In this document: positions 14,281-29,612 of the stretch, piece by piece
How the letters are laid out: the number at the start of each line of letters is the position of its first letter
How positions within the stretch are numbered: the first letter of the stretch is position 1
NCBI GenBank assembly: GCA_964395025.1
Contig: CAYMZP010000001.1
Coordinates: forward strand, 1-45,821
Length of the DNA: 45,821 nt
From: an uncultured Candidatus Saccharibacteria bacterium
GTDB lineage: Bacteria > Patescibacteriota > Minisyncoccia > Phycocordibacterales > Phycocordibacteraceae
Reading direction: 5' to 3'
The notes under the pieces: model-generated
Told to the model about the DNA's origin: nothing
Databases searched by the model: none
Seen by the model: only the letters and a program-made list of their open reading frames with translations
Program-made: the position numbers and the translations under genes

Positions 14281-15831
14281 GTGTTACTATTCAGACAAAT
14301 GGTTGGTCCTGTTATGTCTCACCTGCGTGCAGTAGTACGCATTCTAGCTCGCCGTGTACACGCACTCTGGCGTCGTTTTAGACGACTATCTCCACGCATG
14401 CAGATACTCACGACAGCGCTCGTCATACTACTGGTGATCGTCTTCTTTGCAGTTGTACGAAACACAGAATCAACAGCGAGTGTGTCAGCAAACCGAACCG
14501 TAACTCTAGAGTCCATAGGAGCACTAGGTGGAGCACACGGAAGTAGTACCGTGCTTGGTACAGTACGTTCAATCACAGAAGCAGAGGTACTGGCTGAAAC
14601 AAGCGGTACCGTTCGAAGTGTGCATACACGTATTGGTGCAGAAGTGCCAAGTGGTTTTATTATTGCTGAACTTGAGAACGCATCTGAGCGTGCAGCAGTA
14701 CTCCAAGCAGAGGGCGCATACGATGCAGCAGTAGCGGCACAGTCTGCGACGTCTCTCACTGATGTACGTACCACGGCAGAAAACGTATACCGAGACGCGT
14801 TCAGCGACTTTGAAAATGTACTTGAGAATGGTGTGGATCTTTTCTTTGGTGGACCAACGGTCTACGGTCCAGACTTACTCATTAACCCAGGAAGTGTTGA
14901 TGGTATATATCTTTCCCAGGAACGCGCCTCCATAGACCGAGCTATGGACCAGTGGCGTAAAGAACTCTCTTCTATTTCAGAACGCGATCCTGCGGTCTTT
15001 TTAACCGAAGCAGAAACACTTGCGCGTACGATTGAGTCGTTTGGAAATACACTTGCGGAAGCGGCGTATAAATCAAATTCGCGTGCAACGACTGAGCAAC
15101 TCGCGGCATTCGCATCAGCACGAAGCACCATAAGCGGAATACTCGCATCACTCACCAATGCACGCACGCTCTACCGAAGTGGCGCAACTACTTCCACCGC
15201 ATCTACTGAAGCAGGCGTAAAGTCTGCACTTGGCACCTTGCGTCTTGCGCAAGCAACGCTTGAAAAAACACTTATACGCGCGCCTATTGGCGGAACCATA
15301 AACTTCCTCCCTATGCGCGTCGGTATGTACGTAACCGGACTCTCACATGTAGCAACTGTCGCACAAAATGGCGCGCTTGAAGTAACGGCGTTTGTATCTG
15401 AAGATGAGCGCGATCTTCTTGCAGTTGATATGCAGGTCTCTCTTGGTGAAGGTGCTACCGGTACCGTGACTTCTATTGCGCCAGCGCTTGACCCAGTAAC
15501 TAAACGCATAGAGGTGCGCATTACAGCTAATGCAGAGAGCGGTATTACCAATGGACAATCGGTACGCGTTGGCATTCCTTCAAGCACTCTAGAAACGGTT
15601 ACCGGCACATTCCTTCTCCCTTTGACTTCTGTAAAACTTCGCGCAAGCGACCGTGTTGTGTTTTCGGTAGATGAACAATCACGGCTCGTGGCGCATGCGG
15701 TCACACTCGGTGAGGTGCGTGGTGACCGCGTGGAAGTACAGACTGACCTTTCACCTCTCCTTCGTATCGTGACAGATGCACGTGGCCTTGCTGAAGGCGA
15801 GACGGTGTCCGTACAAGAGGTACTGCCATGA
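14281..15831 (+). CDS. Efflux RND transporter periplasmic adaptor (HlyD/MFP family)
   Basis: N-terminal TM helix, coiled-coil middle region, RAPIGGTINF beta-barrel motif. ATGA overlap with the RND pump. The start is uncertain (14299, 14314 and 14398 are alternatives). Confidence 0.8.
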   Translation: MLLFRQMVGPVMSHLRAVVRILARRVHALWRRFRRLSPRMQILTTALVILLVIVFFAVVRNTESTASVSANRTVTLESIGALGGAHGSSTVLGTVRSITEAEVLAETSGTVRSVHTRIGAEVPSGFIIAELENASERAAVLQAEGAYDAAVAAQSATSLTDVRTTAENVYRDAFSDFENVLENGVDLFFGGPTVYGPDLLINPGSVDGIYLSQERASIDRAMDQWRKELSSISERDPAVFLTEAETLARTIESFGNTLAEAAYKSNSRATTEQLAAFASARSTISGILASLTNARTLYRSGATTSTASTEAGVKSALGTLRLAQATLEKTLIRAPIGGTINFLPMRVGMYVTGLSHVATVAQNGALEVTAFVSEDERDLLAVDMQVSLGEGATGTVTSIAPALDPVTKRIEVRITANAESGITNGQSVRVGIPSSTLETVTGTFLLPLTSVKLRASDRVVFSVDEQSRLVAHAVTLGEVRGDRVEVQTDLSPLLRIVTDARGLAEGETVSVQEVLP

Positions 15832-18800
15832 CACGGCTATGGAGCTTCTTTCTTAATAAGCACCACTTCACTGTACTAGTGGCGGTGGTACTGTCCCTCG
15901 CCGGCACATACGCAGTGCTTGCTATTCCCAAAGAATCTTCTCCTGAAGTACAAATCCCTGTTGGTATAGTTACAACGATACTTCCTGGCGCTTCTGCAGA
16001 AGACGTAGAGCGACTCGTGACGAATCCTATTGAAGACCGGGTGCTTGGTATTGAACGCGTTTCAAAAGTAACCTCGTCTTCAGGAAATGGTGTCTCGGTT
16101 ATTACCGTTGAGTTTGATGCATCTGCAGACATACCAACCTCTATTGATCTATTGAAAGATGAAGTAGATTCAGCACGACCCGAACTTCCGCAAGAAGCAG
16201 AAGACCCGGTAGTCTCTGATGTCAACTTCGCAGACCAGCCAATTATTCTTGGTTCCGTTGCAGGCAACGTTCAGCCTGCAGAACTTACGGAACTTGCACG
16301 AGAGCTCCAAGATGAGCTTGAGCGCGTACAAGGAGTCTCCTCAGTCTCACTATCTGGTATACGTGCACGTGAAGTTTCAGTGGTTATTGAGCAAACGAAA
16401 CTTGCACAGTACGGTCTCTCTGTTTCTGACGTCACAAACGCCATACGTCTTTCAGGTATCGCATCCCCTATTGGATCTCTCGTCACAAACGACGTGCAAT
16501 ACGCGGTACGACTTGAGGCAGGCATTACGACTACCGACGAAGTGGCGAGTATCGCTCTCCCGAGCAAGGGTACACCGTTATACCTGCGTGACGTTGCTGG
16601 TGTTATAGACGGTCTTGAAGACCCGGTGACGCTTTCTCGCGTCTCAGTAAACGGCACACCTTCCTCCCCGGCACTCACCTTTTCTGTGTTTAAAAGCCGT
16701 GGCGGAAATATTGTTGAAACAGGAGATGCCGTAAAAGAACGGCTCGCGGAGCTTGGCGAAACTACTCTTGCAGGCACAAGTGTTGTTTTTTCATACGATG
16801 CTGCGGACGAGGTGAAACATGACTTAACAAAACTCACACGTGTAGGGCTTGAGACTGTTGCGCTCGTGATGATTATGCTTTTACTCACACTCGGTTGGCG
16901 TGAATCGCTTGCTGCAGCTCTCTCCATCCCTCTTTCATTTCTTATTGCATTCATTGGTCTCTATGCGTCAGGGAACACCATAAACTTCGTCTCACTCTTT
17001 TCTCTTATTCTTGCGATTGGCATATTAGTGGACACGGGCATTGTGGTCGTGGAAGCAATACATACGCGACTTATTGCATACGGGAATAAACGTCAAGCAG
17101 CGCTCGCCACCATTAAAGAGTACGCGTGGCCTCTTACTGCCGGAACGCTCACCACTGTTGCAGTATTTGTACCGCTCTTCTTCCTCTCAGGAATTATGGG
17201 GAAATTTGTGGCGTCTATTCCTTTTACCGTGATTTTCGTTTTGCTCGCATCTATTTTTGTCGCCCTTGCACTCATTCCACTCTTTTCACTGTATATCGTA
17301 CGACCGACGCTCTCTTCTTTTGAAGCACGCCAAGAACGATACAACGAGCGTGCAAAAGAGTGGTATCAAGGCATATTGCGTGGACTGTTGTCTGACAAAA
17401 AAGCACAGAATCGTGTCTTGTGGGCCATGGGATTCCTTTTTATTGTTGCGCTCGCACTTCCTGCAACAGGCGCAGTACAAAGCGTTTTCTTCCCGAACGA
17501 AGATATGGACTTTATCTATGTGGAAGTTGAAAAACCGTATGGCACTGCACTGACCGCTACCGACCTCTCAGTCCGTGAAGTGGAGGAACTCTTGTATACC
17601 GATACAGATATAGAGTCATTCGTGTCTGAAGTAGGAAGTGGTAACGCCTTCTCTGCTTCACCGCGCTCAGGTAGTCATGTGGGGAACGTCACTATAAATT
17701 TGAAGGAAGACCGTAAAGAAACAAGTGCGGAAATTGTCTCGCGTTTACGCGAACAGCTCTCGCGCATACCGTCAGCACGTATCACCGTCTCTGAACCAGC
17801 ATCAGGTCCGCCTTCTGGAGCGCCGTTTGTAGCGACGTTCTTCGGCAACGACCTCGCGCTCCTTGGTCAAACGGTAGACCGTGCTGCACAACTCTTGGAA
17901 GAGACCGGAGGTGCGGTAAACATCAACACCTCCACACGCGATAGTGGTCCAGAGTTTGTGATTGATTTAGATGGCGCAAAAGCTGCAGCGCAAGGTATTT
18001 CACCTGCACTCGTGGCAGAAACACTTCGTACCGCACTTTTTGGTACAACTGCTACAACTATACGTACACCAGAAACCGACATCGACGTCACCGTAAAGTT
18101 AGATTTAAACGCCAGCTACCGTGATCCTTCTGAAACAACACATGCAACCATAGATACGGTACGCACCCTCTTAATCCCCGGCATGGCGGGAAGCGTACCG
18201 CTCTCGACCATTGCAGATATTCGCTTTGAGGCAGCTGAAAGTGCTATTCGACATGAGGATGGAACACGTATTGCCACGCTCACATCCGAAATTACCGGTA
18301 ATCCGATAGCGGTATCAAACGAGTTTGAACGACACATGAACGACATGGGAGTACCCTCAGGCATCACCATGAAGATTGGCGGTGAAACTGAAGACGTCAA
18401 TCGTTCGTTTGCAGAAATGGGTATCGCGCTTCTTGCAGGTGCTGCACTTATGCTTGCTATTCTCGTACTTGAGTTTAATTCCTTCCGCCATGCCCTATAT
18501 CTTCTGCTCACTATCCCCCTTTCCCTTATTGGCGTAATGGTTGGGCTCTTAGTAACAGGACAACCACTTTCTTTCTCGTCCATGCTCGGCGTCATTGCGC
18601 TCGCAGGAGTGATTATCAACCACGCGATTATTCTTATGGATTCAATCGCACGTATAGGAAAAGAGCATAGCGGAACGCTTCAAGATATCGTAATAGAGGC
18701 TTCTGCTTCTCGTTTCCGACCTATCATACTTACCACCGCCACGACCGTTGTGGGTATGATTCCCCTTTCGTTTGCTTCTGCGCTCTGGGGACCACTCGCA

Positions 18801-18929
18801 TTTGCCATTATGTTTGGCCTGGCATTTTCTACCGTCCTCACACTTGTGATGATTCCTATCTTGTACTATCGCTGGCCCGGCAAAGAAGTAAGAGAAACAT
18901 TCCAAGAAAAAACATCCTACGGTTCCTGA
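15828..18929 (+). CDS. RND efflux permease (AcrB/AcrD/AcrF family)
   Basis: 1033 aa with a 12-TM topology and two large extracytoplasmic loops. The N-terminus FFLNKHHFTVLVAVVLSLAGTYA is typical of the ACR_tran family. Confidence 0.9.
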   Translation: MTRLWSFFLNKHHFTVLVAVVLSLAGTYAVLAIPKESSPEVQIPVGIVTTILPGASAEDVERLVTNPIEDRVLGIERVSKVTSSSGNGVSVITVEFDASADIPTSIDLLKDEVDSARPELPQEAEDPVVSDVNFADQPIILGSVAGNVQPAELTELARELQDELERVQGVSSVSLSGIRAREVSVVIEQTKLAQYGLSVSDVTNAIRLSGIASPIGSLVTNDVQYAVRLEAGITTTDEVASIALPSKGTPLYLRDVAGVIDGLEDPVTLSRVSVNGTPSSPALTFSVFKSRGGNIVETGDAVKERLAELGETTLAGTSVVFSYDAADEVKHDLTKLTRVGLETVALVMIMLLLTLGWRESLAAALSIPLSFLIAFIGLYASGNTINFVSLFSLILAIGILVDTGIVVVEAIHTRLIAYGNKRQAALATIKEYAWPLTAGTLTTVAVFVPLFFLSGIMGKFVASIPFTVIFVLLASIFVALALIPLFSLYIVRPTLSSFEARQERYNERAKEWYQGILRGLLSDKKAQNRVLWAMGFLFIVALALPATGAVQSVFFPNEDMDFIYVEVEKPYGTALTATDLSVREVEELLYTDTDIESFVSEVGSGNAFSASPRSGSHVGNVTINLKEDRKETSAEIVSRLREQLSRIPSARITVSEPASGPPSGAPFVATFFGNDLALLGQTVDRAAQLLEETGGAVNINTSTRDSGPEFVIDLDGAKAAAQGISPALVAETLRTALFGTTATTIRTPETDIDVTVKLDLNASYRDPSETTHATIDTVRTLLIPGMAGSVPLSTIADIRFEAAESAIRHEDGTRIATLTSEITGNPIAVSNEFERHMNDMGVPSGITMKIGGETEDVNRSFAEMGIALLAGAALMLAILVLEFNSFRHALYLLLTIPLSLIGVMVGLLVTGQPLSFSSMLGVIALAGVIINHAIILMDSIARIGKEHSGTLQDIVIEASASRFRPIILTTATTVVGMIPLSFASALWGPLAFAIMFGLAFSTVLTLVMIPILYYRWPGKEVRETFQEKTSYGS

Positions 18930-19945
18930 GGCCTGAATTGAATCGTGAGTTCCGGTAGTGCTACAGGTGAAGTAGGAATATCGTCTGTAGGGACAGCCAT
19001 GAGACTCATAGAAACGGTGTCGAGAGACTCTTCAGTAGCAACTTTGGCACTACGAGCAGTTGGTGCTTCTTCGGTAAATGTCATAACTACCTCTTGATCG
19101 GTTTTCCGTTTAACTACATCCGCAAAACGAAGTGTAGCAATAGTGCGCGTAGCTTCTTCAGCAATACGTACATAGGTTTCTACTGAAAATGTGTCATCTT
19201 CGGAGAACGCATCTACATCCGTAAGTGCTGTGGACAAAGAGCGTGCGAGTGTTTCCGCGGTTTCTTCGGTTTCTCTAGTCCACACTCCATCTTCAATTAC
19301 CGTGAGAAGCTGTTCAACTCGTTCGTATGCACTAGCACGCGCTTCTGTAACATTCTCTTCCGCAACTGACGGAACATAGGTATCTATACGTTCAATAATA
19401 TCTTCTATTGCACGTGCATGTTCTTCAGGAAGACTCGCAGCCTCTGCAGACAGAAGTGTACGGTGTGCTACACGGACGGTCTGTGCTTGTTTTGAAGCAA
19501 TGGGTGAAAGCGACACTGCGTGGGTAAATTCTTTTTCTGCTGAATCAACTGCATATGTCGCTCGTTCTTCAGAGAGTGAACCGGTCACTGCGAGAACTTG
19601 TGCTTCGCGCAACCGTTCTTCACCTAACGCAATGCGGAACTGTGCTTCGTTTTCTTTTCCAATAACAACCAAAGACAGGAGTGGCTCCGTAAGGGTACGT
19701 TTAACGCCATAGAGCGTGTCGCCGGGAATGGCATGACGTGCAGCATACGCACCCACTCCTCCACTACTAATGCACACGAGAAGAAGCACCGCGAAAACGG
19801 AGACGTAGCTCTGCCACAACACGCGCACATGTGTCGCCGTATGTGCGGGACGCATAAGAATCTGAGCACGCATGTATGCACGCTCCGCATCAGTGAGCGA
19901 GTACTCAGGTGTTTTTTTAATAGTGAGAAAATCGTTTGGGTTCAT
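18917..19945 (-). CDS. Anti-sigma-factor-like membrane protein (DUF5667 domain)
   Basis: Short cytoplasmic N-terminus, a single TM helix, then PGDTLYGVKRTLTE and a helical repeat ectodomain. There is a 4-nt overlap with the upstream ECF sigma gene. Confidence 0.6.
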   Translation of the reverse strand: MNPNDFLTIKKTPEYSLTDAERAYMRAQILMRPAHTATHVRVLWQSYVSVFAVLLLVCISSGGVGAYAARHAIPGDTLYGVKRTLTEPLLSLVVIGKENEAQFRIALGEERLREAQVLAVTGSLSEERATYAVDSAEKEFTHAVSLSPIASKQAQTVRVAHRTLLSAEAASLPEEHARAIEDIIERIDTYVPSVAEENVTEARASAYERVEQLLTVIEDGVWTRETEETAETLARSLSTALTDVDAFSEDDTFSVETYVRIAEEATRTIATLRFADVVKRKTDQEVVMTFTEEAPTARSAKVATEESLDTVSMSLMAVPTDDIPTSPVALPELTIQFRPQEP

Positions 19946-20448
19946 GGTGCGGGGGATGTATAGAGTGCACGAAGCTTGGTGAGTCCACGCTTCACGCGAA
20001 CTGAAATGGTGTTGGGTTTTTCGCCAAGAAGCTCAGCTACCTCTTGTATGGGATATCCTTCCACCAAATGCAGGGAAAGCGTAGTCCGATATGGTTCAGA
20101 GACCTGCGAAAGTGCACGAAGTGCACCGCGTGCCTCCGCATGTATTTCAGCGTCTGCGGAAACACCAACTGCTTCAAATGTGCCTTCTGGCAAATCACTC
20201 TCTACTACTGCTTTCTTTTTTTTGTAGTGGTCTTTTATGAGGTTGCGGGTCACCGTAAAAAGAAAGGCTGAGCCGTTTTCTATGCGTGTCTTTGGGCTTT
20301 GCATCCGTTCAAACACACGGGTAAACGCTTCTTGCGTGAGGTCTTTTGCCTCCTCACGAGAACTCGTTTTTGCGTAACAGAGACGAAATACCGCATCGGC
20401 ATGCGTGTCATAGAGCGCCACAAAATCGGTGTGGATCTGTTCTGTCAT
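19942..20448 (-). CDS. ECF-type RNA polymerase sigma-70 family factor
   Basis: Region 2 is DAVFRLCYAKTSSREEAKDLTQEAF. Region 4 HTH is YPIQEVAELLGEKPNTISVRVKRGLTKLR. The start is taken at the MTEQIH Met. Confidence 0.85.
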   Translation of the reverse strand: MTEQIHTDFVALYDTHADAVFRLCYAKTSSREEAKDLTQEAFTRVFERMQSPKTRIENGSAFLFTVTRNLIKDHYKKKKAVVESDLPEGTFEAVGVSADAEIHAEARGALRALSQVSEPYRTTLSLHLVEGYPIQEVAELLGEKPNTISVRVKRGLTKLRALYTSPAP

Positions 20449-20476
20449 AGTAGACGAAGGAGTGGCATATACATGA

Positions 20477-20974
20477 CTATGGCAACAGAGAACCCACGAG
20501 CGCACCGATGAGTATGGCAAGTCCTCCAATTATCACCATACGCGTTATGGAGCGGAAAAACGGCATGCGGGTGACGGCCGCCGCAGCCATACCAAGGAGC
20601 GCAAGCGCTAGCAATGCGCTCATAATAGAAAGTGGTAGTGCCTGCGTCGGCACGAAAAACATATACGGCGCGAGCGGAATAAATCCGGATACAAAATATG
20701 ACACGAACATAATCCCTGAAGCGATGTACGAATGCGTACCGCTTGTAGACTGTTGATTTTCGTATTCTTCGGCAGAAGACTCGGAGAGGAAGCTTCCCGC
20801 AGTCATAGAAAGTGCTTCTACAAAAATCAAAATGACCCCCGTTACGAAAATGTCTCCTCGTTCCATTCCTGCAATAGCAACTCCTGAAAGGAGTCCTACC
20901 GTAGAGACCAAGCTATCCTCTACGCCAAAAATGAAGTTGCGCACATACGCAGCGGGAAATACAAAGCGCTTCAT
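20477..20974 (-). CDS. VIT1/CCC1 family iron/manganese transporter
   Basis: FGVEDSLVSTVGLLSGVA motif and 5 TM helices. Confidence 0.8.
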   Translation of the reverse strand: MKRFVFPAAYVRNFIFGVEDSLVSTVGLLSGVAIAGMERGDIFVTGVILIFVEALSMTAGSFLSESSAEEYENQQSTSGTHSYIASGIMFVSYFVSGFIPLAPYMFFVPTQALPLSIMSALLALALLGMAAAAVTRMPFFRSITRMVIIGGLAILIGALVGSLLP

Positions 20975-21006: not shown

Positions 21007-22191
21007 CTAGGTACTCGACTTCTTCCTACGCAGACTCTTTTTACGCTTTAACACGGTTTCTGCTTCATCAAGTTCCTCTTCAAACGAAGCCAAGAACTCG
21101 AGCTCTTCTTTGGTCAAAATGCGGTCTTCGCTTGCGTTTCTGATTTTTCGTACGTGCGTATTCAGGTCTTTTTTGAGAATATCGAAGACACGACGTGTCA
21201 CATCTCGCGCTTCGTTTTCACGTGCATGTATTTCGCGCGTCATTCTAAATAAGCGGTCAAAGCCTATCGCATGCAATACACCAAGGAGTCCAATACTTGC
21301 AAGTATCACCAGTGCGAAGAGTGCAAGATGTCCCACACCGAGCCATCCGAACATCCCTTTCCAGTCAGTACGTACTTCAAGTGGAAGGGTGTCTGACTCT
21401 GGACTAACACTTCCGTCTTCAGTAGTTACGCGCAAGCGAAGTGTGTATGAGCCAGCAGGAAGATGCTTTGCAAGCACAAATGCAAAGTCCCCCTCAGGTG
21501 CGCTGTATGCATATTCCGTATTGAGCAAGGAACCTCCTTGATATACCAAGAGCTCTACTACTCCTCTACCGTACGTGGTCCCACGAAGCGCAACCAAATC
21601 GTTGATACCCACTTCAGCGTCATAGTAGGTCACTTGTGGTGGTGTAGTAGCAGGAACGGTTGTATCCACCTCTTCATGTGGTGCTACCTCTACCGTTTCG
21701 GGTGCTTGTGGTTCGACCGGTGTAGTAAGGGATTCGGTAATAGTGTATGACGCGCTTCCTGTGCTTGTTAAAATGCTGGTCCCTTGTCCATCATTTGCCA
21801 ACACAGATGCATCAGAGAACGTCAGCGTGCCACTTCCCTCGCTCCGTGGCACAAGAACAAAACTAGCCACTTTTGCACCAGCACCTTGATACCCAGGATT
21901 CATCACGACACCCTCTAGCATAACCGTGTTTCCAGAAACCGTAGGTTGCTGTACCCAGAAATTCACCACCGACCCGACAGAAGAAGCAGACACAACGGTA
22001 AAACGTTCACTCGGCACCTGTATCTGTGCAGAAATAGCGTTCAGTGCTTGGTCTGTGCTTGCGGCATATACCGTTACCGTAAACGGCTTCCCTATGGTTT
22101 GCGTACCTGAAGAAGGAGAAAAATATAATGTTGCCGCACTCGCAGAGAACGGCATAGCAAAAATGAGTACAAGAAAAAGTACTATTTTCAT
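21007..22191 (-). CDS. Cohesin-like domain surface protein with a C-terminal TM anchor and a cytoplasmic coiled-coil tail
   Basis: Signal peptide MKIVLFLVLIFAMPFSASA. The cohesin-like N-domain reads LYFSPSSGTQTIGKPFTVTVYA...NFWVQQPTVSGNTVMLEGVV...LANDGQGTSI. An Ig-like middle domain, a TM helix and an ~85-aa charged tail follow. The ATG at 22191 gives an ATGA overlap with the upstream gene. Confidence 0.7.
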   Translation of the reverse strand: MKIVLFLVLIFAMPFSASAATLYFSPSSGTQTIGKPFTVTVYAASTDQALNAISAQIQVPSERFTVVSASSVGSVVNFWVQQPTVSGNTVMLEGVVMNPGYQGAGAKVASFVLVPRSEGSGTLTFSDASVLANDGQGTSILTSTGSASYTITESLTTPVEPQAPETVEVAPHEEVDTTVPATTPPQVTYYDAEVGINDLVALRGTTYGRGVVELLVYQGGSLLNTEYAYSAPEGDFAFVLAKHLPAGSYTLRLRVTTEDGSVSPESDTLPLEVRTDWKGMFGWLGVGHLALFALVILASIGLLGVLHAIGFDRLFRMTREIHARENEARDVTRRVFDILKKDLNTHVRKIRNASEDRILTKEELEFLASFEEELDEAETVLKRKKSLRRKKSST

Positions 22192-23027
22192 ACACGACGT
22201 TTCCTCCAGTATACCCGCCATACCACAACGCAAAGTATAAGGAGTGCAAAAACGAGTGCTGATACGACCGCAATTCCTGTATGACGACCGGCAACACGCG
22301 TCTCGATAAAGTTCCCAGCGTAATCATATGCACGCACTGAAAGTGGTACGAGCCCAAACCGGTCACGAACTGCATATAGATATCCTGTACGCTCCCACGC
22401 ACTTCTTCCTTCCTGCACTTCAAAATACGCAATGCCACTGTCTGCATCAAAACTGGAGATAATGAGTGACGGACGACCTTCAAGCACTCGTGTGTCACGG
22501 AACGATTGTACGTCAATGTACTCCGGCGGAGTGCGGTCAGTAGTAAATGTCCCTACGCGCTCTTCGGTCTGCATCAGCTCATCAGAAAGGGCAATGCGCG
22601 TACCTTTCCCATCATTCATGTATAGTGCAGCATCTGCAACGCGCACTTCTTCTACCGGTTTGTTTGTCTCAAAAGACAAGAGTGCACCAGGACCATGCAA
22701 TCCTTCTCCCGAACGGGCACTTCCTGTAAACCCTCCAGGAATAATACCGGCAAAGCGAATGGTGTTACCGGACGCGGTAGGTGTTTCGAGCCAATACGAG
22801 ATGATACTTCCACCCGTAAATACGGTAGGCACTGAGACGTCATCAGGAAGTGTTAGCGTTCCCTCAACAGCATTTATAGCAGTAGTTGTAGCTACGAGAT
22901 ATACAGAAACGCGAGATGTGGTATCACTACGCATTTCTTCCAATAAAAAAGTGGCGTGTACAAAAGAAGGCACACAGAGGAAACAGAGGAGAGAGAGTAA
23001 GAAAGTACGCATACTTAGTTGGTCCAA
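22188..23027 (-). CDS. Cohesin-like domain surface protein with a C-terminal TM anchor (paralog of the 21007-22191 N-domain)
   Basis: Has a signal peptide. INAVEGTLTLP...SYWLETPTASGNTIRFAGIIPGGFTG...MNDGKGTRI aligns with the neighbouring cohesin-like domain. The C-terminal TM helix ends in WRKRRV. Confidence 0.6.
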   Translation of the reverse strand: MDQLSMRTFLLSLLCFLCVPSFVHATFLLEEMRSDTTSRVSVYLVATTTAINAVEGTLTLPDDVSVPTVFTGGSIISYWLETPTASGNTIRFAGIIPGGFTGSARSGEGLHGPGALLSFETNKPVEEVRVADAALYMNDGKGTRIALSDELMQTEERVGTFTTDRTPPEYIDVQSFRDTRVLEGRPSLIISSFDADSGIAYFEVQEGRSAWERTGYLYAVRDRFGLVPLSVRAYDYAGNFIETRVAGRHTGIAVVSALVFALLILCVVVWRVYWRKRRV

Positions 23028-24103
23028 TGATACGCCATGATAGAAAAGTCCACGATATCAATCTTCCCGTCTCCAGAAAGACGCTCAGACTCATCCACGA
23101 CGAGCACCGATGAAAGCGGACGCTGATACCAATACGCGGCAATAGAAAAGTCTAAAATATTTACTCGGTTGTCTTTATTTAAATCCCCTTTCATGAGGAC
23201 CACTGAGGTCGCACCTGTTTGCGACACTATAAAATCCACCACCTTACTTTCAGCAGACACACGGGCTGAAAGTGCCGTTTGCGACTGTGCAGTATGGTCG
23301 CCGACCTCAAGAATGGAAGAGTTGAACTCTAAAAGGTACGTACCATTAGGGTCACTCGCTGCTGAGAAAAAGTGAGGTTCTTCTGAGTTCACTTCAAGTG
23401 TCACGGCACCAAACGGAACACTTTGTCCAAAAAACCGTACCGTATCTCCGCGACGCACGTCACGAGAAGAAACTGAAAGCGTAGGTGCTAAAAATATGCC
23501 TCCCACTTCCGTAGAAGACCCCTCGGTAAGAGTGATAGGAATAGAAAAGAGTGCGGAGCGACTTCCGCTTGCGTCCACACCCACAAGCGCAAGTGTATGA
23601 CTTCCCTCTGGAATGGAGAGTGTAATAGTAAATCGAGAATCAGGACCTGCTTCAGAGCGAACGACGAGTCTGTTATTTCTGTAGAGAAGCACACCACTTC
23701 GTGGATATGCATTTCCGGATAGTGTGACGGTTGCACGGTCACCTCCACCCCCTCCTCCACCACCTCCACCTCCGCCTCCGCCGCTACCTCCAGACGGTAG
23801 ATTCACTTCACTCATATCCGTAACACTGTCGCATCCCGGGTCGTTTGGATAATCGGTTAAAGAATCTCCGTCGTTATCTAAGCCGTCGCTACAAATGTAA
23901 ACTGGGTCGGTTTCATCATCATCAAGCACCGAAGAACAGCCCGGATCATCTGGGTAATCAGTAAGAGAATCTCCGTCATTATCGTTCCCATCAAGACATT
24001 CAGGAATAAAAACGGTCACCGATACACTCGTGGTATCCGCGTATAGGACGAGCGGTATAAGCACCGCACTCACCAACAAGAGGATGGCGCCGAAGCGCAT
24101 CAT
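23015..24103 (-). CDS. Secreted dockerin-domain protein with two CxDGxDNDGDSLTDYPxDPGC modules and a poly-Gly linker
   Basis: The C-terminus carries a duplicated dockerin Ca-loop/helix: GDLNKDNRVNILDFSIAAYWY and GDGKIDIVDFSIMAYHW. The N-terminus has a signal peptide, the two Cys-bounded Asp-rich modules and a long poly-Gly linker (GGSGGGGGGGGGGGGGG). Confidence 0.8.
   Translation of the reverse strand: MMRFGAILLLVSAVLIPLVLYADTTSVSVTVFIPECLDGNDNDGDSLTDYPDDPGCSSVLDDDETDPVYICSDGLDNDGDSLTDYPNDPGCDSVTDMSEVNLPSGGSGGGGGGGGGGGGGGDRATVTLSGNAYPRSGVLLYRNNRLVVRSEAGPDSRFTITLSIPEGSHTLALVGVDASGSRSALFSIPITLTEGSSTEVGGIFLAPTLSVSSRDVRRGDTVRFFGQSVPFGAVTLEVNSEEPHFFSAASDPNGTYLLEFNSSILEVGDHTAQSQTALSARVSAESKVVDFIVSQTGATSVVLMKGDLNKDNRVNILDFSIAAYWYQRPLSSVLVVDESERLSGDGKIDIVDFSIMAYHWTN
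23741..23797 (-). repeat. Coding (GGN)n tract (poly-Gly linker)
   Basis: The plus strand reads ACCTCCACCCCCTCCTCCACCACCTCCACCTCCGCCTCCGCCGCTACCTCC. Confidence 0.8.
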
Positions 24104-24993
24104 GTCCGTGCTACACGATTACGTTTTTTGAGTACCAAGAATGCAAAGATGCCAAGTATAAGCACAACGAGTATAGCGCCACCTCCTATGAGATACGGCA
24201 TAGCTTTCTCAAAAAATGTTTTTTCGTACACATTAAAAACGGTACGGAGTTCTCCCACCATACTGTTTCCTTCGTATACTTTTACATGTCCCCAGTATTC
24301 TCCAGGTGCAATGTAAATATCAAGTGGGAACACAACCTCAGAACCACCCTCAGAAAAAGCAGGGATTCTTTTTACTTCTCTATTTTCAGCATACGCGAGA
24401 CGGATTTCACCAAACTTGTTAAAGAGTTCGAATGTCACAGCGTCAGGTCCAGAGGGTACGTTACCGGTATTAGCAATATCAACTCGAGCACGCGGGTCTT
24501 CTCCTTCAGTAATATCTAGAATGTCTATTTGCTTGAGCGAAAACTCGCTTACGACTCCTTCACCAACTACCAAATCAAGCGTTACGAGTCCGCCAAGTGC
24601 AATCGCTACTTCGCCACCCTCATCAGCACGCTCGGGTACTGCCGTAATACGTATCTCTCCCCCATACACACCAAACGGTGCATCGTCGGGAACGTCTACC
24701 CGAATAACAAGGGGAAACTGTTGTACCCCTTTTGGAATGGTAATCGGACGACCTTGCGGGAAGGAAATCCAGGATGCGATTTCAGAGTTGACTTCGAGTT
24801 CTATCGGAATGTCTCTATCAGGGACTCCTTGTACCAAGTACACAATTCGCTCAAGTGAGATACCGCGCACTAACCGGTCTTCTTCAATAAGAGGCGGAGA
24901 AACACCAAAGCCTGCAAGCGCTACGAATGGGCCAGCAAAAAGTAGTGCAAAAAGCGTGAGGCCTAGTGCCGATGACGTGAAGAAAGTGTTCAT
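24100..24993 (-). CDS. Secreted two-Ig-like-domain protein with a C-terminal TM anchor (architecture reminiscent of DUF916/DUF3324 CscA-type proteins)
   Basis: Signal peptide, then two beta-rich domains (FGVSPPLIEE...GVYGGEIRITAV and DIANTGNVPSG...GEYWGHVKVY), then a TM helix plus KKRNRVART. There is a 4-nt overlap with the dockerin gene. Confidence 0.6.
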   Translation of the reverse strand: MNTFFTSSALGLTLFALLFAGPFVALAGFGVSPPLIEEDRLVRGISLERIVYLVQGVPDRDIPIELEVNSEIASWISFPQGRPITIPKGVQQFPLVIRVDVPDDAPFGVYGGEIRITAVPERADEGGEVAIALGGLVTLDLVVGEGVVSEFSLKQIDILDITEGEDPRARVDIANTGNVPSGPDAVTFELFNKFGEIRLAYAENREVKRIPAFSEGGSEVVFPLDIYIAPGEYWGHVKVYEGNSMVGELRTVFNVYEKTFFEKAMPYLIGGGAILVVLILGIFAFLVLKKRNRVART

Positions 24994-25015: not shown

Positions 25016-25951
25016 CTAGTCGGTCACTGCGGTGAAGGTGTTCTGTCCTGTATAGCTTCCCGGCGTCTGTCCGTTTGGAATACCAATACCCCAGAGCACG
25101 TCGTCGGTGACCGGAGTGGTGGTTGAGGTAGGTTTCGCCAACACCGTTTCAACAGTTACTGGAGTATTCGTGAGGTCAGTACCTGCACCGTACGTGAAGG
25201 AGTTGAGACTATACTCCTGCTGTTCTGCTTGGAGCGTGCTTCCTGCACATCCCGGGTAGTCCGTACACATATCATCACCTGAAAGCTCTGTATCAAGCGC
25301 ATTATTTCCAGTGTTTGTAATGGTCGTCGTTTGATTAGTTGCAGCTGTGTCAGCGTTTGCAGCTACAGAGCCAAATGCGATGGAAGAAGTGACGTTCAGT
25401 GCGTTCAGCGTATTCACTTCTATCGTTTGAGCAGTGTTTGTAGCAACATGAGAATCTGTTCCGTCCGTAGACGTTGCAGCAAACGACCAGATAGACGATG
25501 CGGATGCACCTGAGTCAGTTGGTGTTGCGGTATACCAGATACGGAAACCGCAGTCGTACTGTACGGACGTATCCCCGCCACCATCGCACGTATTGCCGGT
25601 CGTTGTTGCCACACACACAGAGGTGTAACAGGAGTTGCCGTTATACGAGCAACCACTACCACTATTTGCTGGAGAAGCGAGATAAAACTTTGAAGTAACC
25701 GACGTAATAGTGCTACAGCCGTTTGCATCAGTAACCGTTACCGTGCCAGTTGCGTTCACATAGGTATTCTCAGTCAATGTGACGTCTGAACCCCCGTGGA
25801 AACTTGCGGCAGACGTAACGGGAGCCGAGTTCCCAACAGTCACTGACGTAGAAGCAGTGTCTGCAAGCACAATGCTATACGCACAAAGCCCTGCAATCAC
25901 TAAAATAGTTGCAGGGATACATAGGTACGCAGGAACGCGGTAAACATTCAT
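25016..25951 (-). CDS. Secreted beta-rich protein, small paralog of the C-terminal two-domain module of the 1195-aa protein
   Basis: N-terminal hydrophobic signal or anchor. The segments VTLTENTYVNATGTVTVTDANG, IEVNTLNALNVTSSIAFGSV...ITNTGNNALD and C-terminal DDVLWGIGIPNGQTPGSYTGQNTFTAVTD all align with the large neighbour. Confidence 0.6.
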   Translation of the reverse strand: MNVYRVPAYLCIPATILVIAGLCAYSIVLADTASTSVTVGNSAPVTSAASFHGGSDVTLTENTYVNATGTVTVTDANGCSTITSVTSKFYLASPANSGSGCSYNGNSCYTSVCVATTTGNTCDGGGDTSVQYDCGFRIWYTATPTDSGASASSIWSFAATSTDGTDSHVATNTAQTIEVNTLNALNVTSSIAFGSVAANADTAATNQTTTITNTGNNALDTELSGDDMCTDYPGCAGSTLQAEQQEYSLNSFTYGAGTDLTNTPVTVETVLAKPTSTTTPVTDDVLWGIGIPNGQTPGSYTGQNTFTAVTD

Positions 25952-26024
25952 GGGTAAGTATTTAATGCTCTATATACACTAAAGTATACGGGCTTCATGC
26001 CTCACAAACAGGTGACTATCCCCA

Positions 26025-29000
26025 CTAGATGCCAGTGACTGCAGTGAAAGTATTAGTGCCAGTATATGAACCGGCGGGAGTGCCGTTTGGTACTCCCAGT
26101 CCCCAAAACACATCGTCACTCAAACTTCCTGCTTCAGAGTATATAAGCACTATGAGTCCTTGAAGGCCTAGCGCACCTGCACCGGCAACTATTGAAGAGC
26201 CAGAACCACGTCCACCACCTCCACCTCCGCCTCCACCGCCTCCATACTCGCCACCTATACCACCAGCACCACCACCACCTGCATCGCGTCCACCTCCGCC
26301 ACCTCCTCCTCCGCCCCCACCACTACCTACACTAGTCCACTCACTACCATCACCACCAGGGTCACCTGCCGTTGCTTGACCTCCTTCGTCTACAGAACCA
26401 GTACCAGCAGAACCTCCTGCACCACCACTTCCATTATTCCCTGCACCTCCTGTACCGCCATTACTACCGTTTGACGCGCCTCCAACAGAACCAGCTGTGC
26501 CTATGACACCATCTCCAGACGCACCTCCTGCACCTCCGCCTCCGCCTCCGCCAGATCCGCCGTCATTCCCTCCTGTACTTTGACCATTACCACCCGCTCC
26601 GCCTGAGTAAAGTGTGTCACCGACACCACTGCCACTTGCACCACCTCCACCGCCCGTAGTACCAGATCCACCACTTCCTCCTTTTGCAAGAAGCGTGCCC
26701 ATGCTTTCAAACCACGTATCGCCTCCAGCACTCCCTATACCACCCCCACTTCCAATGGAAATATCTATCGTATCGCTCGGCGTCAACGAATGGTTAGTGA
26801 GAATAGATATGGCACCACCACCTCCACCACCTCCACTATTACCACCGTTAGAACCATCACCATTTGCACCATTTGCACCCCCACCTCCCCCACCAATTAC
26901 AAAAATACTATTGTCACTTGAGTTCCAGTCTACCGGCACTTCCCACGTAGTTCCAGAAGTGAGAATCGTCATGACTTCTTCTCCCGTATCAGAAGTTCTC
27001 TGTGGAAGGGTAAGGTTGAAGGCGGTTGGCGTACCCGAAAGTGCGGTACCTCCACTTGAATAGGTAAATGCTGAGGCGCTATATTTTTGTTGCGATGCAA
27101 GAATGGAACCACTACCTCCGTCAGTCATAGCAATGCCAGAGAGTTGTGGGTCCATGTCCACATTTCCCGTGTTGGTTACCGTCGTCGATTGGTTTGTCGT
27201 ACCCGTATCGGTGTTCGCGTTCACTGTGCCATACGCAATCGTAGAAGTAACGTCGAGCGCCAAGAGAGATGCTACTTCTATGGTATCTACCGCCGGTGTT
27301 CCTGTTGCAGCACCGTCATAGGCGTGCATCTCGCAACTCCATGTGTCTGCAGAGTACGCACTGCCCGCGTCGGTGGCGTCTGCATAGTATTGAATGGGAA
27401 ATGTGCAGGTATACGTTTCGGAGTTACCAGCACCTCCCGAAGGAATGCACTCGCTGTCTCCGTAGAGTCGGTATAGGTTGTTATTGTCACTCGCGGAAGA
27501 TGTGCCAATAGATGTGCGATAGAAAAAAGCACCTACTCGCTCTATATCTTCATACCCGTTTGTATCCGTAGCTGTCCCTGAGCAGATCACATTTTTTGTG
27601 GTGTTTTCAGTGAGCGTTACAGAAACTGCACCAGAATCTACTGAAACTCCGGACACAATAGGGAGCGCGTTACTTCCCACTGCTCCTGTAGTAAGTTGCG
27701 GAATAACACTATACGCATCTAGTTCAGTTCCGTCGCTTTTCACCATGCGAAAACAATAGTCGGTTTCTGCCGGTGCACCGTTATCCGTCAAAGAAAAATC
27801 CCACTTTGCATCTTGATTGTCTGGCACATATGCTTCCGAATTACTGAAGGTATTCAATTCCTCGTACGTTTGATTCACAATCGTGTGTCCACTATGTGTT
27901 GGGTCACTGCCATTTGCTGTAAGCGCGTCTCCATCGGCGGGAGTGCCGTTGTCTTTATATGCAATTGCTGTTGCACCTGTCACATCCACATACGTTTCTC
28001 CTGAAAAGCCTATGTCGCAGGAACCTGACATGGGAGAAAATTGGAGTTTGAATGAATGTTCATCAATACCAGCACCCTCATCTATGTGCATGAGCATACG
28101 TAAACGCACATCATCTCCACCTGAGGCAAGCTCCGCAGGAGTGTCTTGTGCTGCAAGTGCTGAACCGACGTTAGTACTATTTGCGCCTTCGAAAAAGCGG
28201 TACGCAGATTGTGTGTACACGGCTAAATCTCTCACCGTATTCCCGTACAAGTCATTCCCTGTTGTTGCCGTAACATCATGGTAAAGCGCAAACAAACGTT
28301 GCGCAGAAGAGTTATCAATAGAAACAGCGCGGTGGTTGCGGTCGGTATCACTCGAGAGAAGATTGTCTATACTCCACGTACTTCCATCATCAGTAGACAC
28401 CGAGTAATACACATCGTTTGCCGTTGCCGACGCACCACGCGAATACACTACGTACAAATCACCGGTGTTTTGGTCTATGCCGATAGAAGAATCGGTAATG
28501 GCAGATGTGCCGTCCGTTGTGTTTGGCCAGGCGTCGGTTAGCTCTGCCCACGAGCTTCCGTTATATCGTGCCCCCCGCACCTCACTGGTATTTGTGGTGC
28601 CTGGTACATGTACATACGAAACGTAGAGATTGCTCGTAGTTAGATCTACCGTTCCCGATAATGCATGCGTATACGTGGTGCTGTCCGTAACACTCGAAGC
28701 GAGCGTCGTGAAGTTTGAAGACCAGCTATTTGCTGAATCGTCATACACTTTATATTCAACAACGTGTGCAGTGATGTCGTGAGAAACAAGCATCATGTCT
28801 CCCGCATCGTGGGTGGCATTGTCAGGGAGCGGTAACAGTACAATCGCATGCACAGCGTCTACGTCTGCCGTATCTCCGTCCCACGGGTTACTACCGGCGG
28901 AAGCCCAATTAGCGGTATTGGTACAATCGCTTCCATTTGGACATTTGTGTGCAAAGGTTGCCGGTGCGGTTGGTGCTGTTTCGTCTACCGTGATTGCATA

Positions 29001-29612
29001 CACATCACCATCAGTACCAACCGATATAGCAACATCATTATTGTTCGTGAGTGAACCCTGTGCTCCCGCAGAAGCAATGGTTACTTCGGTCGCAAGCGAT
29101 GTGTCATTCGAGGTATCAAACCGGTCATACATGATGTCGTCTGCAGTGCTGAAATATGCAATGTGTACATATGTCCCACTATTTCCTGGAGTCCATTGGT
29201 CATACCAAACACCCATAGAAACCCAAGTGCCGGCATCTATATCAGTTCCCGTTCCGCTCCAGCTCGTACCTCCGTCCGTTGACTTCTGATACGCAACGTC
29301 ATTGTCAGAATCTATATAAAATACGTAACAGACTGTGTCAGATGTACACACGACATTTTTCCCTGATTTTTGGTGACGAAGAATGGTGGTGTTGACGGTA
29401 GTGTCTATGGCTTGTTCAGCTGCTCGCGCACGATTGTACTGAAACGAATCTATAACAGATCCATCTTGTAATGCAAGCCACAGCTCATCCACCACATTGG
29501 CACGAACCGCATACTCCGCTACAAGCGCAATAGGTACTTGCGAAGCAAGAAAAGCACAGAGACATACAAGCGCGAGAGTATGGCTACGTAAAAAGCGAAA
29601 AAACCGTCTCAT
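26025..29612 (-). CDS. Giant secreted surface protein: BNR/Asp-box beta-propeller-like N-region, Ig-like domains and a glycine-rich inserted module
   Basis: Signal peptide. Asp-box repeats STDGGTSW and STDDGSTW. The central beta domains are shared with the 311-aa paralog. Residues ~880-1160 are Gly-rich (SGTTWEVP...VIGGGGGG...GLIVLIYS). The C-terminus is DDVFWGLGVPNGTPAGSYTGTNTFTAVTGI. Confidence 0.75.
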   Translation of the reverse strand: MRRFFRFLRSHTLALVCLCAFLASQVPIALVAEYAVRANVVDELWLALQDGSVIDSFQYNRARAAEQAIDTTVNTTILRHQKSGKNVVCTSDTVCYVFYIDSDNDVAYQKSTDGGTSWSGTGTDIDAGTWVSMGVWYDQWTPGNSGTYVHIAYFSTADDIMYDRFDTSNDTSLATEVTIASAGAQGSLTNNNDVAISVGTDGDVYAITVDETAPTAPATFAHKCPNGSDCTNTANWASAGSNPWDGDTADVDAVHAIVLLPLPDNATHDAGDMMLVSHDITAHVVEYKVYDDSANSWSSNFTTLASSVTDSTTYTHALSGTVDLTTSNLYVSYVHVPGTTNTSEVRGARYNGSSWAELTDAWPNTTDGTSAITDSSIGIDQNTGDLYVVYSRGASATANDVYYSVSTDDGSTWSIDNLLSSDTDRNHRAVSIDNSSAQRLFALYHDVTATTGNDLYGNTVRDLAVYTQSAYRFFEGANSTNVGSALAAQDTPAELASGGDDVRLRMLMHIDEGAGIDEHSFKLQFSPMSGSCDIGFSGETYVDVTGATAIAYKDNGTPADGDALTANGSDPTHSGHTIVNQTYEELNTFSNSEAYVPDNQDAKWDFSLTDNGAPAETDYCFRMVKSDGTELDAYSVIPQLTTGAVGSNALPIVSGVSVDSGAVSVTLTENTTKNVICSGTATDTNGYEDIERVGAFFYRTSIGTSSASDNNNLYRLYGDSECIPSGGAGNSETYTCTFPIQYYADATDAGSAYSADTWSCEMHAYDGAATGTPAVDTIEVASLLALDVTSTIAYGTVNANTDTGTTNQSTTVTNTGNVDMDPQLSGIAMTDGGSGSILASQQKYSASAFTYSSGGTALSGTPTAFNLTLPQRTSDTGEEVMTILTSGTTWEVPVDWNSSDNSIFVIGGGGGGANGANGDGSNGGNSGGGGGGGAISILTNHSLTPSDTIDISIGSGGGIGSAGGDTWFESMGTLLAKGGSGGSGTTGGGGGASGSGVGDTLYSGGAGGNGQSTGGNDGGSGGGGGGGAGGASGDGVIGTAGSVGGASNGSNGGTGGAGNNGSGGAGGSAGTGSVDEGGQATAGDPGGDGSEWTSVGSGGGGGGGGGGGRDAGGGGAGGIGGEYGGGGGGGGGGGRGSGSSIVAGAGALGLQGLIVLIYSEAGSLSDDVFWGLGVPNGTPAGSYTGTNTFTAVTGI
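26133..26975 (-). repeat. Glycine-rich coding module with long (GGN)n tracts
   Basis: Runs of CCACC/CCGCC/CCTCC on the plus strand (for example 26210-26330) encode G8-G12 runs. Confidence 0.75.

Follow-up and report, generated by a model that had tools for sequence, protein, structure and literature searches.

The locus described here raises the question of whether a long glycine-rich stretch that interrupts a conserved domain is a linker, a repeat or a domain in its own right, and of how the interrupted domain accommodates it. Two adjacent genes, referred to below as the small and the large paralog, lie on contig CAYMZP010000001.1 within a stretch of 45,821 nucleotides that was analysed as a whole (the window). 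The explanation that we consider probable is that the large gene encodes a secreted, modular surface protein, most likely an adhesin, of a Paceibacterota bacterium of the candidate phyla radiation (CPR), and that a complete glycine-rich domain has been grafted into a loop of an immunoglobulin-like (Ig-like) host domain of this protein. An earlier reading of the sequence by a model (the first-pass annotation) had proposed that the two proteins share a C-terminal domain which, in the larger one, is split by a glycine-rich module. The features on which the argument turns, in window coordinates, are the following.

25016..25951, minus strand: small paralog, 311 residues, from the open reading frame (ORF) listing and exactly as first annotated
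26025..29612, minus strand: large paralog, 1195 residues, from the same listing and likewise exactly as first annotated
26025..29612, minus strand: layout of the large paralog, from N- to C-terminus: signal or anchor sequence, BNR/Asp-box half resembling a propeller, beta-rich middle part, and tandem Ig-like module in which the glycine-rich domain is nested
27288..27674, minus strand: Ig-like domain 1 of the large paralog, residues ~647-775, from BLASTP to the small paralog, mapped on strands 45-171 of the latter's model
26979..27287, minus strand: first five major strands of Ig-like domain 2 of the large paralog, residues ~776-878, ending in the 'LTLPQRTSDTGE' linker (BLASTP, multiple alignment and small-paralog model)
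26124..26978, minus strand: nested insert, residues ~879-1163, predicted to be a complete TNF-like plus glycine-rich (Gly_rich_2-type) domain, first strand EVMTIL and last strand LIVLIYS (AlphaFold2, Foldseek and phmmer)
26028..26123, minus strand: last beta-hairpin of Ig-like domain 2, residues 1164-1195, LSDDVFWGLGVPNGTPAGSYTGTNTFTAVTGI, shifted ~285 residues downstream by the insert (70% identity to small-paralog residues 281-310)
25109..25138, minus strand: uninterrupted loop of the small paralog, residues 272-281, AKPTSTTTPV, between strands 265-271 and 282-291 (alignment, model and loop census)

The two proteins are homologous, with a similarity far above chance. In a BLASTP comparison of the pair, residues 22-278 of the small paralog aligned with residues 631-876 of the large one (41% identity, E 7e-33), and residues 281-310 with residues 1164-1193 (70% identity, E 1e-10). 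The two segments are collinear and only two residues apart in the small paralog; in the large one they are separated by about 285 residues (~879-1163, nucleotides 26124-26978). A multiple alignment with orthologs gathers the whole insert in one gap block between 'LPQRTSDTGE' and 'LSDDVFWGLGVPNG'. The interruption of the small/large alignment by a glycine-rich insert, as first annotated, is thus borne out by both BLASTP segments; the span then given to the insert, nucleotides 26133-26975, corresponds exactly to residues 880-1160, and the brackets quoted for it, SGTTWEVPVDWNSSDNSIFVIGGGGGG ... GLQGLIVLIYS, are found in the large paralog.

The small paralog offers a view of the host scaffold in its uninterrupted form. 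It has 138 relatives, most of about 310 residues, and those named by source all come from Patescibacteria/Paceibacterota metagenomes. Library scans, including scans of 112 members, found no Pfam, NCBIfam or PHROG family that describes this family. An AlphaFold2 model built on an alignment of 112 relatives (mean predicted local distance difference test score (pLDDT) 93.9, predicted template modelling score (pTM) 0.80) comprises two beta-sandwich domains, at residues 45-171 and 178-310, of seven major strands each, preceded by an N-terminal helix (8-27) and a conserved coil (28-44). The helix is probably a signal peptide with cleavage after A30, since the nearly invariant Ala30-Asp31 following V-L-A suits a signal-peptidase site. 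A further conserved segment of the protein is DTASTSVTVGNSAP. The last 30 residues form strands 282-291 and 304-310 (pLDDT ~98); being two of the seven strands of the second sandwich, they are not an appended motif, and as the final beta-hairpin of domain 2 they place the insert in the loop just before that hairpin. The C-terminal segment therefore belongs to the same domain as the segment preceding it, as first proposed, the two being contiguous in 185 of the 188 homologs examined. In evolution and in structure alike, the host module is a single unit. A second suggestion, that the terminal strand marks a fimbrial subunit, did not hold. The pattern 'G-x-Y-T-G-x-x-T' is a generic last strand of Ig-like and accessory beta-sandwiches, and the best PDB sequence match of the module in a profile search was the final-strand pattern of a glycoside-hydrolase accessory domain (E 0.4); as a common ending of such sandwiches, the 'G-x-Y-T-G' strand is not diagnostic of fimbrial subunits.

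The same model bears on whether the two proteins build a fibre, the small paralog polymerising by strand donation and the large one serving as tip adhesin through the shared Ig module, as in FimH/CfaE or in TasA/archaeal donor-strand fibres. We regard this as unlikely. The architecture does resemble that of a two-part tip adhesin beside a major subunit, with variable heads followed by a C-terminal module homologous to the small protein, and the best Foldseek matches of the small-paralog model in the PDB include CfaE, FimH, CsuE and PapG. These matches are weak, however (E 3e-4 or weaker, template modelling (TM) scores of 0.15-0.39), and are shared with integrins, RbmA, VPS26 and SdrD (MSCRAMMs), that is, with any tandem Ig protein; on the model they appear to be of the generic tandem-Ig kind only. 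A feature that would suit a fibre is the mature N-terminus of the small paralog, ADTASTSVTVGN(S/A)AP (residues 30-44; window 25820-25864, minus strand), which is at least 90% conserved at seven positions among 112 homologs. With its alternating valines, its coil conformation in the monomer model and its absence from the large paralogs, this segment is a candidate donor or docking strand; any interaction between the two paralogs is putative. Against donation, each of the two sandwiches in the monomer model of the small paralog has seven major strands at very high pLDDT and gives no sign of a missing strand, and the C-terminal strand that the first-pass annotation had singled out for strand exchange is used intramolecularly. 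Neither paralog carries a sortase-type [LI]PxT[GAS] cell-wall sorting motif, which would be compatible with a fibre, and in both the chain stops a few residues beyond the final domain strand. Searches of the neighbours and of the small-paralog family turned up no chaperone, usher, sortase or TasA/WxL family: Pfam and NCBIfam scans of the eight neighbouring proteins found no PapD-like chaperone or usher genes, and TasA/camelysin (Peptidase_M73), WxL (PF13731) and DUF916/DUF3324 gave no match at E<=1 in 112 family members and none in the neighbours. The likeness of the gene cluster to WxL loci is taken here as an analogy.

Comparison across homologs locates the insertion within the history of the family. 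A census was made of the 188 homologs in which both anchors of the loop could be located. The loop before the last hairpin holds 0-12 residues in 185 of them, and the three exceptions, all large paralogs, are the window protein (291 residues), P0383 (383) and P0335 (216), the host modules of which are 72-84% identical to one another. The host domain is accordingly continuous in nearly all homologs, and the flanks of the insert correspond to strands 265-271 and 282-310 of a single sandwich in the small-paralog model. Versions with and without an insert, for which the first-pass annotation had suggested a search, both exist. Among close orthologs, P0122 (908 residues, 72% identical; locus L004) and P0329 (946 residues; L006) have the same N-terminal half and the same syntenic position and lack the insert; each is followed by a small paralog and a membrane protein of ~300 residues, and runs directly from '...LPQRT..' to '..I(S/T)D..WGLGVPNG..' with the hairpin kept. 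The insertion is lineage-specific, and orthologs differ in what the loop contains. More widely, a search with the whole large protein returned at least 58 matches, and a repeat of it with glycine runs masked found 73 relatives of the C-terminal module, proteins of 315-984 residues with highly variable N-terminal parts.

The other two occupied loops hold modules unrelated to the one in the window. In P0383 (L005 26-1405) the guest matches DUF2341 (E 1e-6) and Laminin_G_3 (E 6e-18); the gene is cut by the contig end, with its frame open upstream into the Ig domain, and a small paralog of 310 residues follows. The guest of P0335 (L008 6001-8922) comprises 216 residues with no Pfam match, in the same synteny and with a small paralog next; the hairpin of this protein is internal, 230 further residues coming after it, and the guest and this C-terminal extension have no significant similarity to each other. 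The junctions of the three are alike: QRTSDTGEEV|...|SEAGS-LSDD in the window, QRTDDTVG|...|TGGGGT-ITDD and RRTDDSNG|...|SGGGI-ISD. The insert-less P0330-P0333 carry 'TDGGGGVVTD' at the site, which looks like two linker halves joined.

One could read the C-terminal 30 residues as a portable sorting, docking or anchoring tag, and the large protein as a linear chain of truncated Ig domain, glycine-rich domain and tag, with no nesting at all. The motif does follow three different modules (in P0121, P0383 and P0335), no stretch of the family is more conserved (70-84% identity), and a similar 'IP.G...G.YTG..T' pattern recurs in unrelated beta-sandwich domains. Yet it directly continues the domain in 185 of the 188 homologs, was never seen without the preceding Ig part (the frame of P0383 continues upstream into the Ig domain) and supplies two of seven sandwich strands in the model; in P0335 it is internal and is therefore not a C-terminal tag. 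The model and the census contradict this reading, which we judge very unlikely.

A second concern is that an insert-less ortholog was joined during assembly to a glycine-rich-domain gene from another member of the metagenome. The nested glycine-rich form occurs on one contig only, and the GC content at third codon positions is 0.27 in the insert and 0.42-0.44 in the rest of the gene. This difference is explained, however, by the 121 glycine codons of the insert, mostly GGT and GGA, which also account for a GC and GC-skew anomaly at 25-28 kb of the window. A chimera would moreover need two in-frame junctions, both at domain boundaries within one 10-residue loop, followed by the correct last 32 host codons, and two independent assemblies from other samples have other modules nested in the same way at this loop. 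An artefact of this kind is thus very improbable.

As to the insert itself, it begins ...MTILTSGTTWEVPVDWNSSDNSIFVIGGGGGG and ends ...GLQGLIVLIYSEAGS, and its glycine content reaches up to 55 per 100 residues. A phmmer search with a 290-residue query against 1.8 billion representative proteins found 1613 relatives at E<=1e-3 and 341 at E<=1e-10, and nearly all of the best ones match residues ~5-285 as a single unit. Such units were found at any position in proteins of 120-2200 residues, some of them standing alone at ~250-290 residues. Many of the top relatives share the Patescibacteria-style opening 'FLTSGTSWTVPSDWNNSNNTIEVIGGGGGG'; the closest of all, P0179, is only 58% identical, so no donor is identified, and tblastn found neither a second copy nor a donor of the module in the window. 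Elsewhere, a stretch 69-71% identical to the opening ~30 residues of the domain is present in two unrelated Proteobacteria-type genomes, a Bdellovibrionaceae metagenome-assembled genome (L010 3001-3093) and Afipia massiliensis (L011 3001-3078), a sign of how far this subtype has spread.

Modelled alone with AlphaFold2 on an alignment of 47 relatives, the insert reached a mean pLDDT of 96.0 and a pTM of 0.92. Strands are predicted at residues 3-8, 13-15, 25-30, 59-63, 72-76, 90-92, 98-100, 124-126 and 277-283, and the long glycine stretches are neither helix nor strand. In Foldseek searches the model matched the tail fibre of cyanophage Pam3 (7ypx_A, E 8e-7, probability 1.0, TM 0.46/0.52; 7yfw_a, also probability 1.0) and the Bxb1 tail-tip entry 9d93 (probability 1.0), as well as 183 predicted viral structures at E<=1e-3, many of them annotated as glycine-rich domain, tail fibre or minor tail protein; matches to entries of the human ALK glycine-rich domain were weak (E 0.06-0.6, probability <0.35). 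Sequence searches point the same way: a profile of the insert family finds the Pam3 fibre sequences directly (E 5e-11), and the insert matches phrog_2683, a minor tail protein, at E 1.6e-4. The model has the elements of a Pam3-type fold, namely a beta-sandwich with glycine-rich loops and bracketing N- and C-terminal strands. On these grounds the insert is, as modelled, an autonomous, conserved and folded domain of known type.

Three properties that had been proposed for the glycine-rich part from the letters alone can be judged from these results. Its independent folding within a conserved bracket is supported by the confidence of the isolated model and by relatives that match end to end, and its phage tail-fibre character by the PHROG, profile and structural matches. 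The solenoid fold also envisaged is contradicted, the modelled fold being a TNF-like sandwich with a glycine lattice as in Pam3 gp24 (PMC9608196). Together, the high pLDDT, the family-wide matching as a unit and the fold matches to Pam3 and Bxb1 indicate that the insert is neither a disordered linker nor a solenoid. In the family alignment, invariant glycine blocks alternate with variable stretches, a pattern that, judged on the alignment, is consistent with the stem-and-tip description of Pam3 gp24.

The same glycine-rich domain also occurs upstream of the same Ig module in tandem, not nested, in P0359, P0218, P0219, P0186 and P0199, which indicates that it is one of the domains normally employed by these surface proteins, probably taken up from within the phylum. 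A different glycine-rich region, with beta-helix-like repeats 'GGSIQADGLGYRGG...' and not of the Gly_rich_2 type, lies upstream of the same Ig module at residues ~1000-1250 of P0142 (1601 residues).

These observations can be assembled into the following explanation of the graft. The C-terminal ~265 residues of the large protein form a tandem Ig-like module, homologous to the whole mature small protein encoded just downstream. In the lineage of the window, a complete TNF-like/glycine-rich domain has entered, in frame, the loop that precedes the last hairpin of domain 2, bringing with it a fold of the receptor-binding kind seen in the tail fibre of Pam3, in minor tail proteins of mycobacteriophages and in the ALK/LTK receptors. 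Because the guest starts and ends with strands and is flanked by short linkers (SDTGE and EAGS), the host sandwich could still close, with the guest protruding from one pole. The first strand of a TNF-like jelly roll lies next to the last, and the ends of the guest could thus bridge a loop that normally holds 4-12 residues; the host's last hairpin remains conserved at 70-84% identity, which speaks for its still completing the sandwich. Assuming simple alternation of direction along the seven strands, the loop would lie at the C-terminus pole, far from Ig domain 1. There the guest would add a second ligand-recognition head, in which conserved segments would form the glycine lattice, with variable segments between them. 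The BNR motif of the large paralog is weak (an Asp-box match), and homologs carry PF13088; with a BNR-type N-terminal half and a glycine-rich guest, the large protein would have two potential binding heads. Since the same loop holds unrelated modules in close orthologs, it seems to act as a tolerant site where binding modules are acquired and may be exchanged from strain to strain.

Several points weigh against this explanation or temper it. The insert matches PF21722 (Gly_rich_2) at 16.6 bits (E 0.008, profile positions 4-146 of 226), below the cut-off of 24.3 bits. Of ten relatives scanned (phmmer E 1e-15 to 1e-30), seven match PF21722 over about the whole 226-position profile and four reach the cut-off, with up to 34.8 bits, so that membership of the insert in this family rests on transitive homology. 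The nested glycine-rich form is known from a single contig, the large paralog being the only member, on one contig, of its own 90% cluster; no second copy was present among the matches listed by junction-spanning searches of genome and metagenome contigs, all of them half-matches. The DNA alignment of the large gene to the insert-less L004 stops at residue ~844, the two being too diverged to show microhomology at the junction. P0364 (984 residues) has an insertion of ~226 residues (~554-779) in a loop of Ig domain 1, after '...NLYRTGSS', and the pre-hairpin loop is therefore a preferred site and not an exclusive one. That the host fold is intact with the insert present is suggested by sequence conservation only; the spatial adjacency of the insert's termini is likewise presumed, and the surface location and binding function of the large protein are putative. 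None of the neighbouring genes has a well-supported known function in Pfam, NCBIfam and PDB sequence searches.

The graft could be taken one step further. The loop may be a natural 'display socket', its guests (Gly_rich_2, DUF2341-LamG, the 216-residue module or, where empty, the joined linkers 'TDGGGGV') swapped between strains, and its scaffold co-assembling with the small paralog into a surface structure, for example via the conserved N-terminal strand of the latter. We consider this extended version doubtful; if true, episymbiotic CPR bacteria would possess a modular system, organised much like cassettes, by which the specificity of adhesion is varied.

Both paralogs belong to a co-directional, tightly packed cassette that is conserved in relatives. 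Its genes encode, in this order, a beta-lactamase-like protein, the large paralog, the small paralog, a protein with a signal peptide and transmembrane segment, one that ends in a dockerin-like part, and two that have transmembrane helices at the C-terminus. The part downstream of the paralogs is the following.

21007..24993, minus strand: four co-directional cassette genes encoding proteins of 297, 362, 279 and 408 residues (ORFs, weak family matches and synteny with L001-L008)

The 297-residue protein has a signal peptide and a C-terminal transmembrane helix. Two repeats of the acidic double-disulfide type (NF033662, E 1e-7) are present in the secreted 362-residue protein (23015-24103, minus strand), which also contains 17 consecutive glycines and ends in a dockerin-like segment (PF00404, E 3e-4; 2y3n_B, E 0.04); in the PDB sequence search its poly-glycine linker matches the linkers of single-chain variable fragments. 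The proteins of 279 residues (22188-23027) and 408 residues (21007-22233) have C-terminal transmembrane helices and, judging by these, could be candidate anchors of the 362-residue protein. As predicted from these sequences, the cassette would fit a cell-surface assembly. PDB sequence searches with the neighbours and with the N-terminal half of the large paralog gave nothing useful, and a promoter and terminator scan of the cassette found no excess over shuffles.

The composition of the cassette varies somewhat among relatives. Three extra small genes (~168, 157-160 and 139-141 residues) lie between the beta-lactamase-like gene and the large paralog in L001 (6901-9925) and L008 (4592-8922). 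In those relatives the large paralog is without its BNR half: it has 540 residues in L001-L003 and 973 in L008, where it holds a nested insert. A BNR-type N-terminal half of ~630 residues is present instead in the window, in L004 and in L006. The start of the large paralog in the window (29612) abuts the stop of the beta-lactamase-like gene (29616). After the cassette come a VIT1-family gene, an extracytoplasmic function (ECF)-type sigma-70 gene, a DUF5667 protein and an ORF of 1033 residues (window 18917-20974, minus strand, and 15828-18929, plus strand), in the same order in L001/L003, where the counterpart of the 1033-residue ORF carries PF00873 (ACR_tran, an RND pump). Regulation of the surface cassette by the ECF-type sigma factor is a possibility. 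Ordinary housekeeping genes make up the remainder of the window, with products that include CTP synthase, SAM synthetase, BipA, a DEAD-box helicase, YceG, ABC and RND transporters and the ECF sigma factor beside the DUF5667 protein; one tRNA-Gln is also present, and the named homologs come from Candidatus Paceibacterota, Pacebacteria, Lloydbacteria and Parcubacteria. The window is chromosomal DNA of a CPR bacterium and does not come from a phage.

Domain insertion into scaffold loops is already known as a route by which adhesins are built, and so is the glycine-rich tail-fibre fold. What is new is their combination and setting, a phage-type glycine-rich domain nested in an undescribed, Paceibacterota-specific tandem Ig-like family, represented by one small and one large paralog within a conserved six-gene surface cassette. 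Among orthologs that are 72-84% identical, a single loop of this host is either empty or filled with any of three unrelated modules, which offers a dated natural case of in-frame domain grafting and points to the end of the scaffold that is probably exposed. The case suggests that bacteria with tiny genomes, probably dependent on hosts, may diversify what their surface binds through the exchange of modules, with a fold by which phages recognise cell surfaces. The tolerant loop and its natural linkers could also be copied in protein engineering. The relevance is to protein evolution and to CPR surface biology; no long-standing question is opened by it, and the function is one that we infer.

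Among known systems, the closest to the guest is gp24, the tail fibre of the myocyanophage Pam3 (7YPX, 7YFW), to which it is linked by the profile match (E 5e-11) and by the structural match (Foldseek probability 1.0, TM 0.46-0.52). In gp24, a TNF-like beta-sandwich has strands extending into six loops, with twelve glycine-rich motifs in a four-layer lattice, and a conserved stem carries a distal tip that varies and for which binding of the host receptor was proposed; gp24 was also reported to be similar to S16 gp38 and to ALK (PMC9608196). Common to the insert and gp24 are a first strand with GGGGGG after it, blocks of conserved glycines and, as the closing strand, 'G.QG.I.I.Y', and the Bxb1 tail-tip proteins (9D93) and Pfam family PF21722 (Gly_rich_2) are related to the same type of domain. 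The two differ in that the insert is part of a cellular protein of a CPR bacterium and nested inside another domain, whereas the Pam3 domain is terminal and belongs to a trimeric phage fibre that has a helical shaft and a chaperone; the insert is also longer (~285 against ~200 residues) and has more glycine motifs.

The TNF-like plus glycine-rich (TG) region of ALK/LTK likewise combines a beta-sandwich with loops that extend into a polyglycine lattice. It belongs to a eukaryotic receptor, however, with no detectable sequence relationship to the insert and only the weak Foldseek matches given above. For the large paralog as a whole, the chaperone-usher tip adhesins FimH, CfaE, CsuE and PapG offer a parallel, in that a variable head is joined to a C-terminal Ig-like module homologous to a small subunit encoded by an adjacent gene; they differ from it in that no chaperone or usher genes were detected here, no incomplete Ig fold is evident and TM-scores are 0.25-0.39. 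Parallels to the nesting itself are found in nested-domain adhesins, for example the pneumococcal pilus adhesin RrgA, and in integrin I-domains, where a ligand-binding domain sits in a loop of a beta-rich scaffold and the host is completed by both flanks. Compared with these, the large paralog has different host and guest folds and carries no sortase signal or isopeptide motif, its host family is without a Pfam or NCBIfam match, and its close orthologs carry different guests at the same loop.

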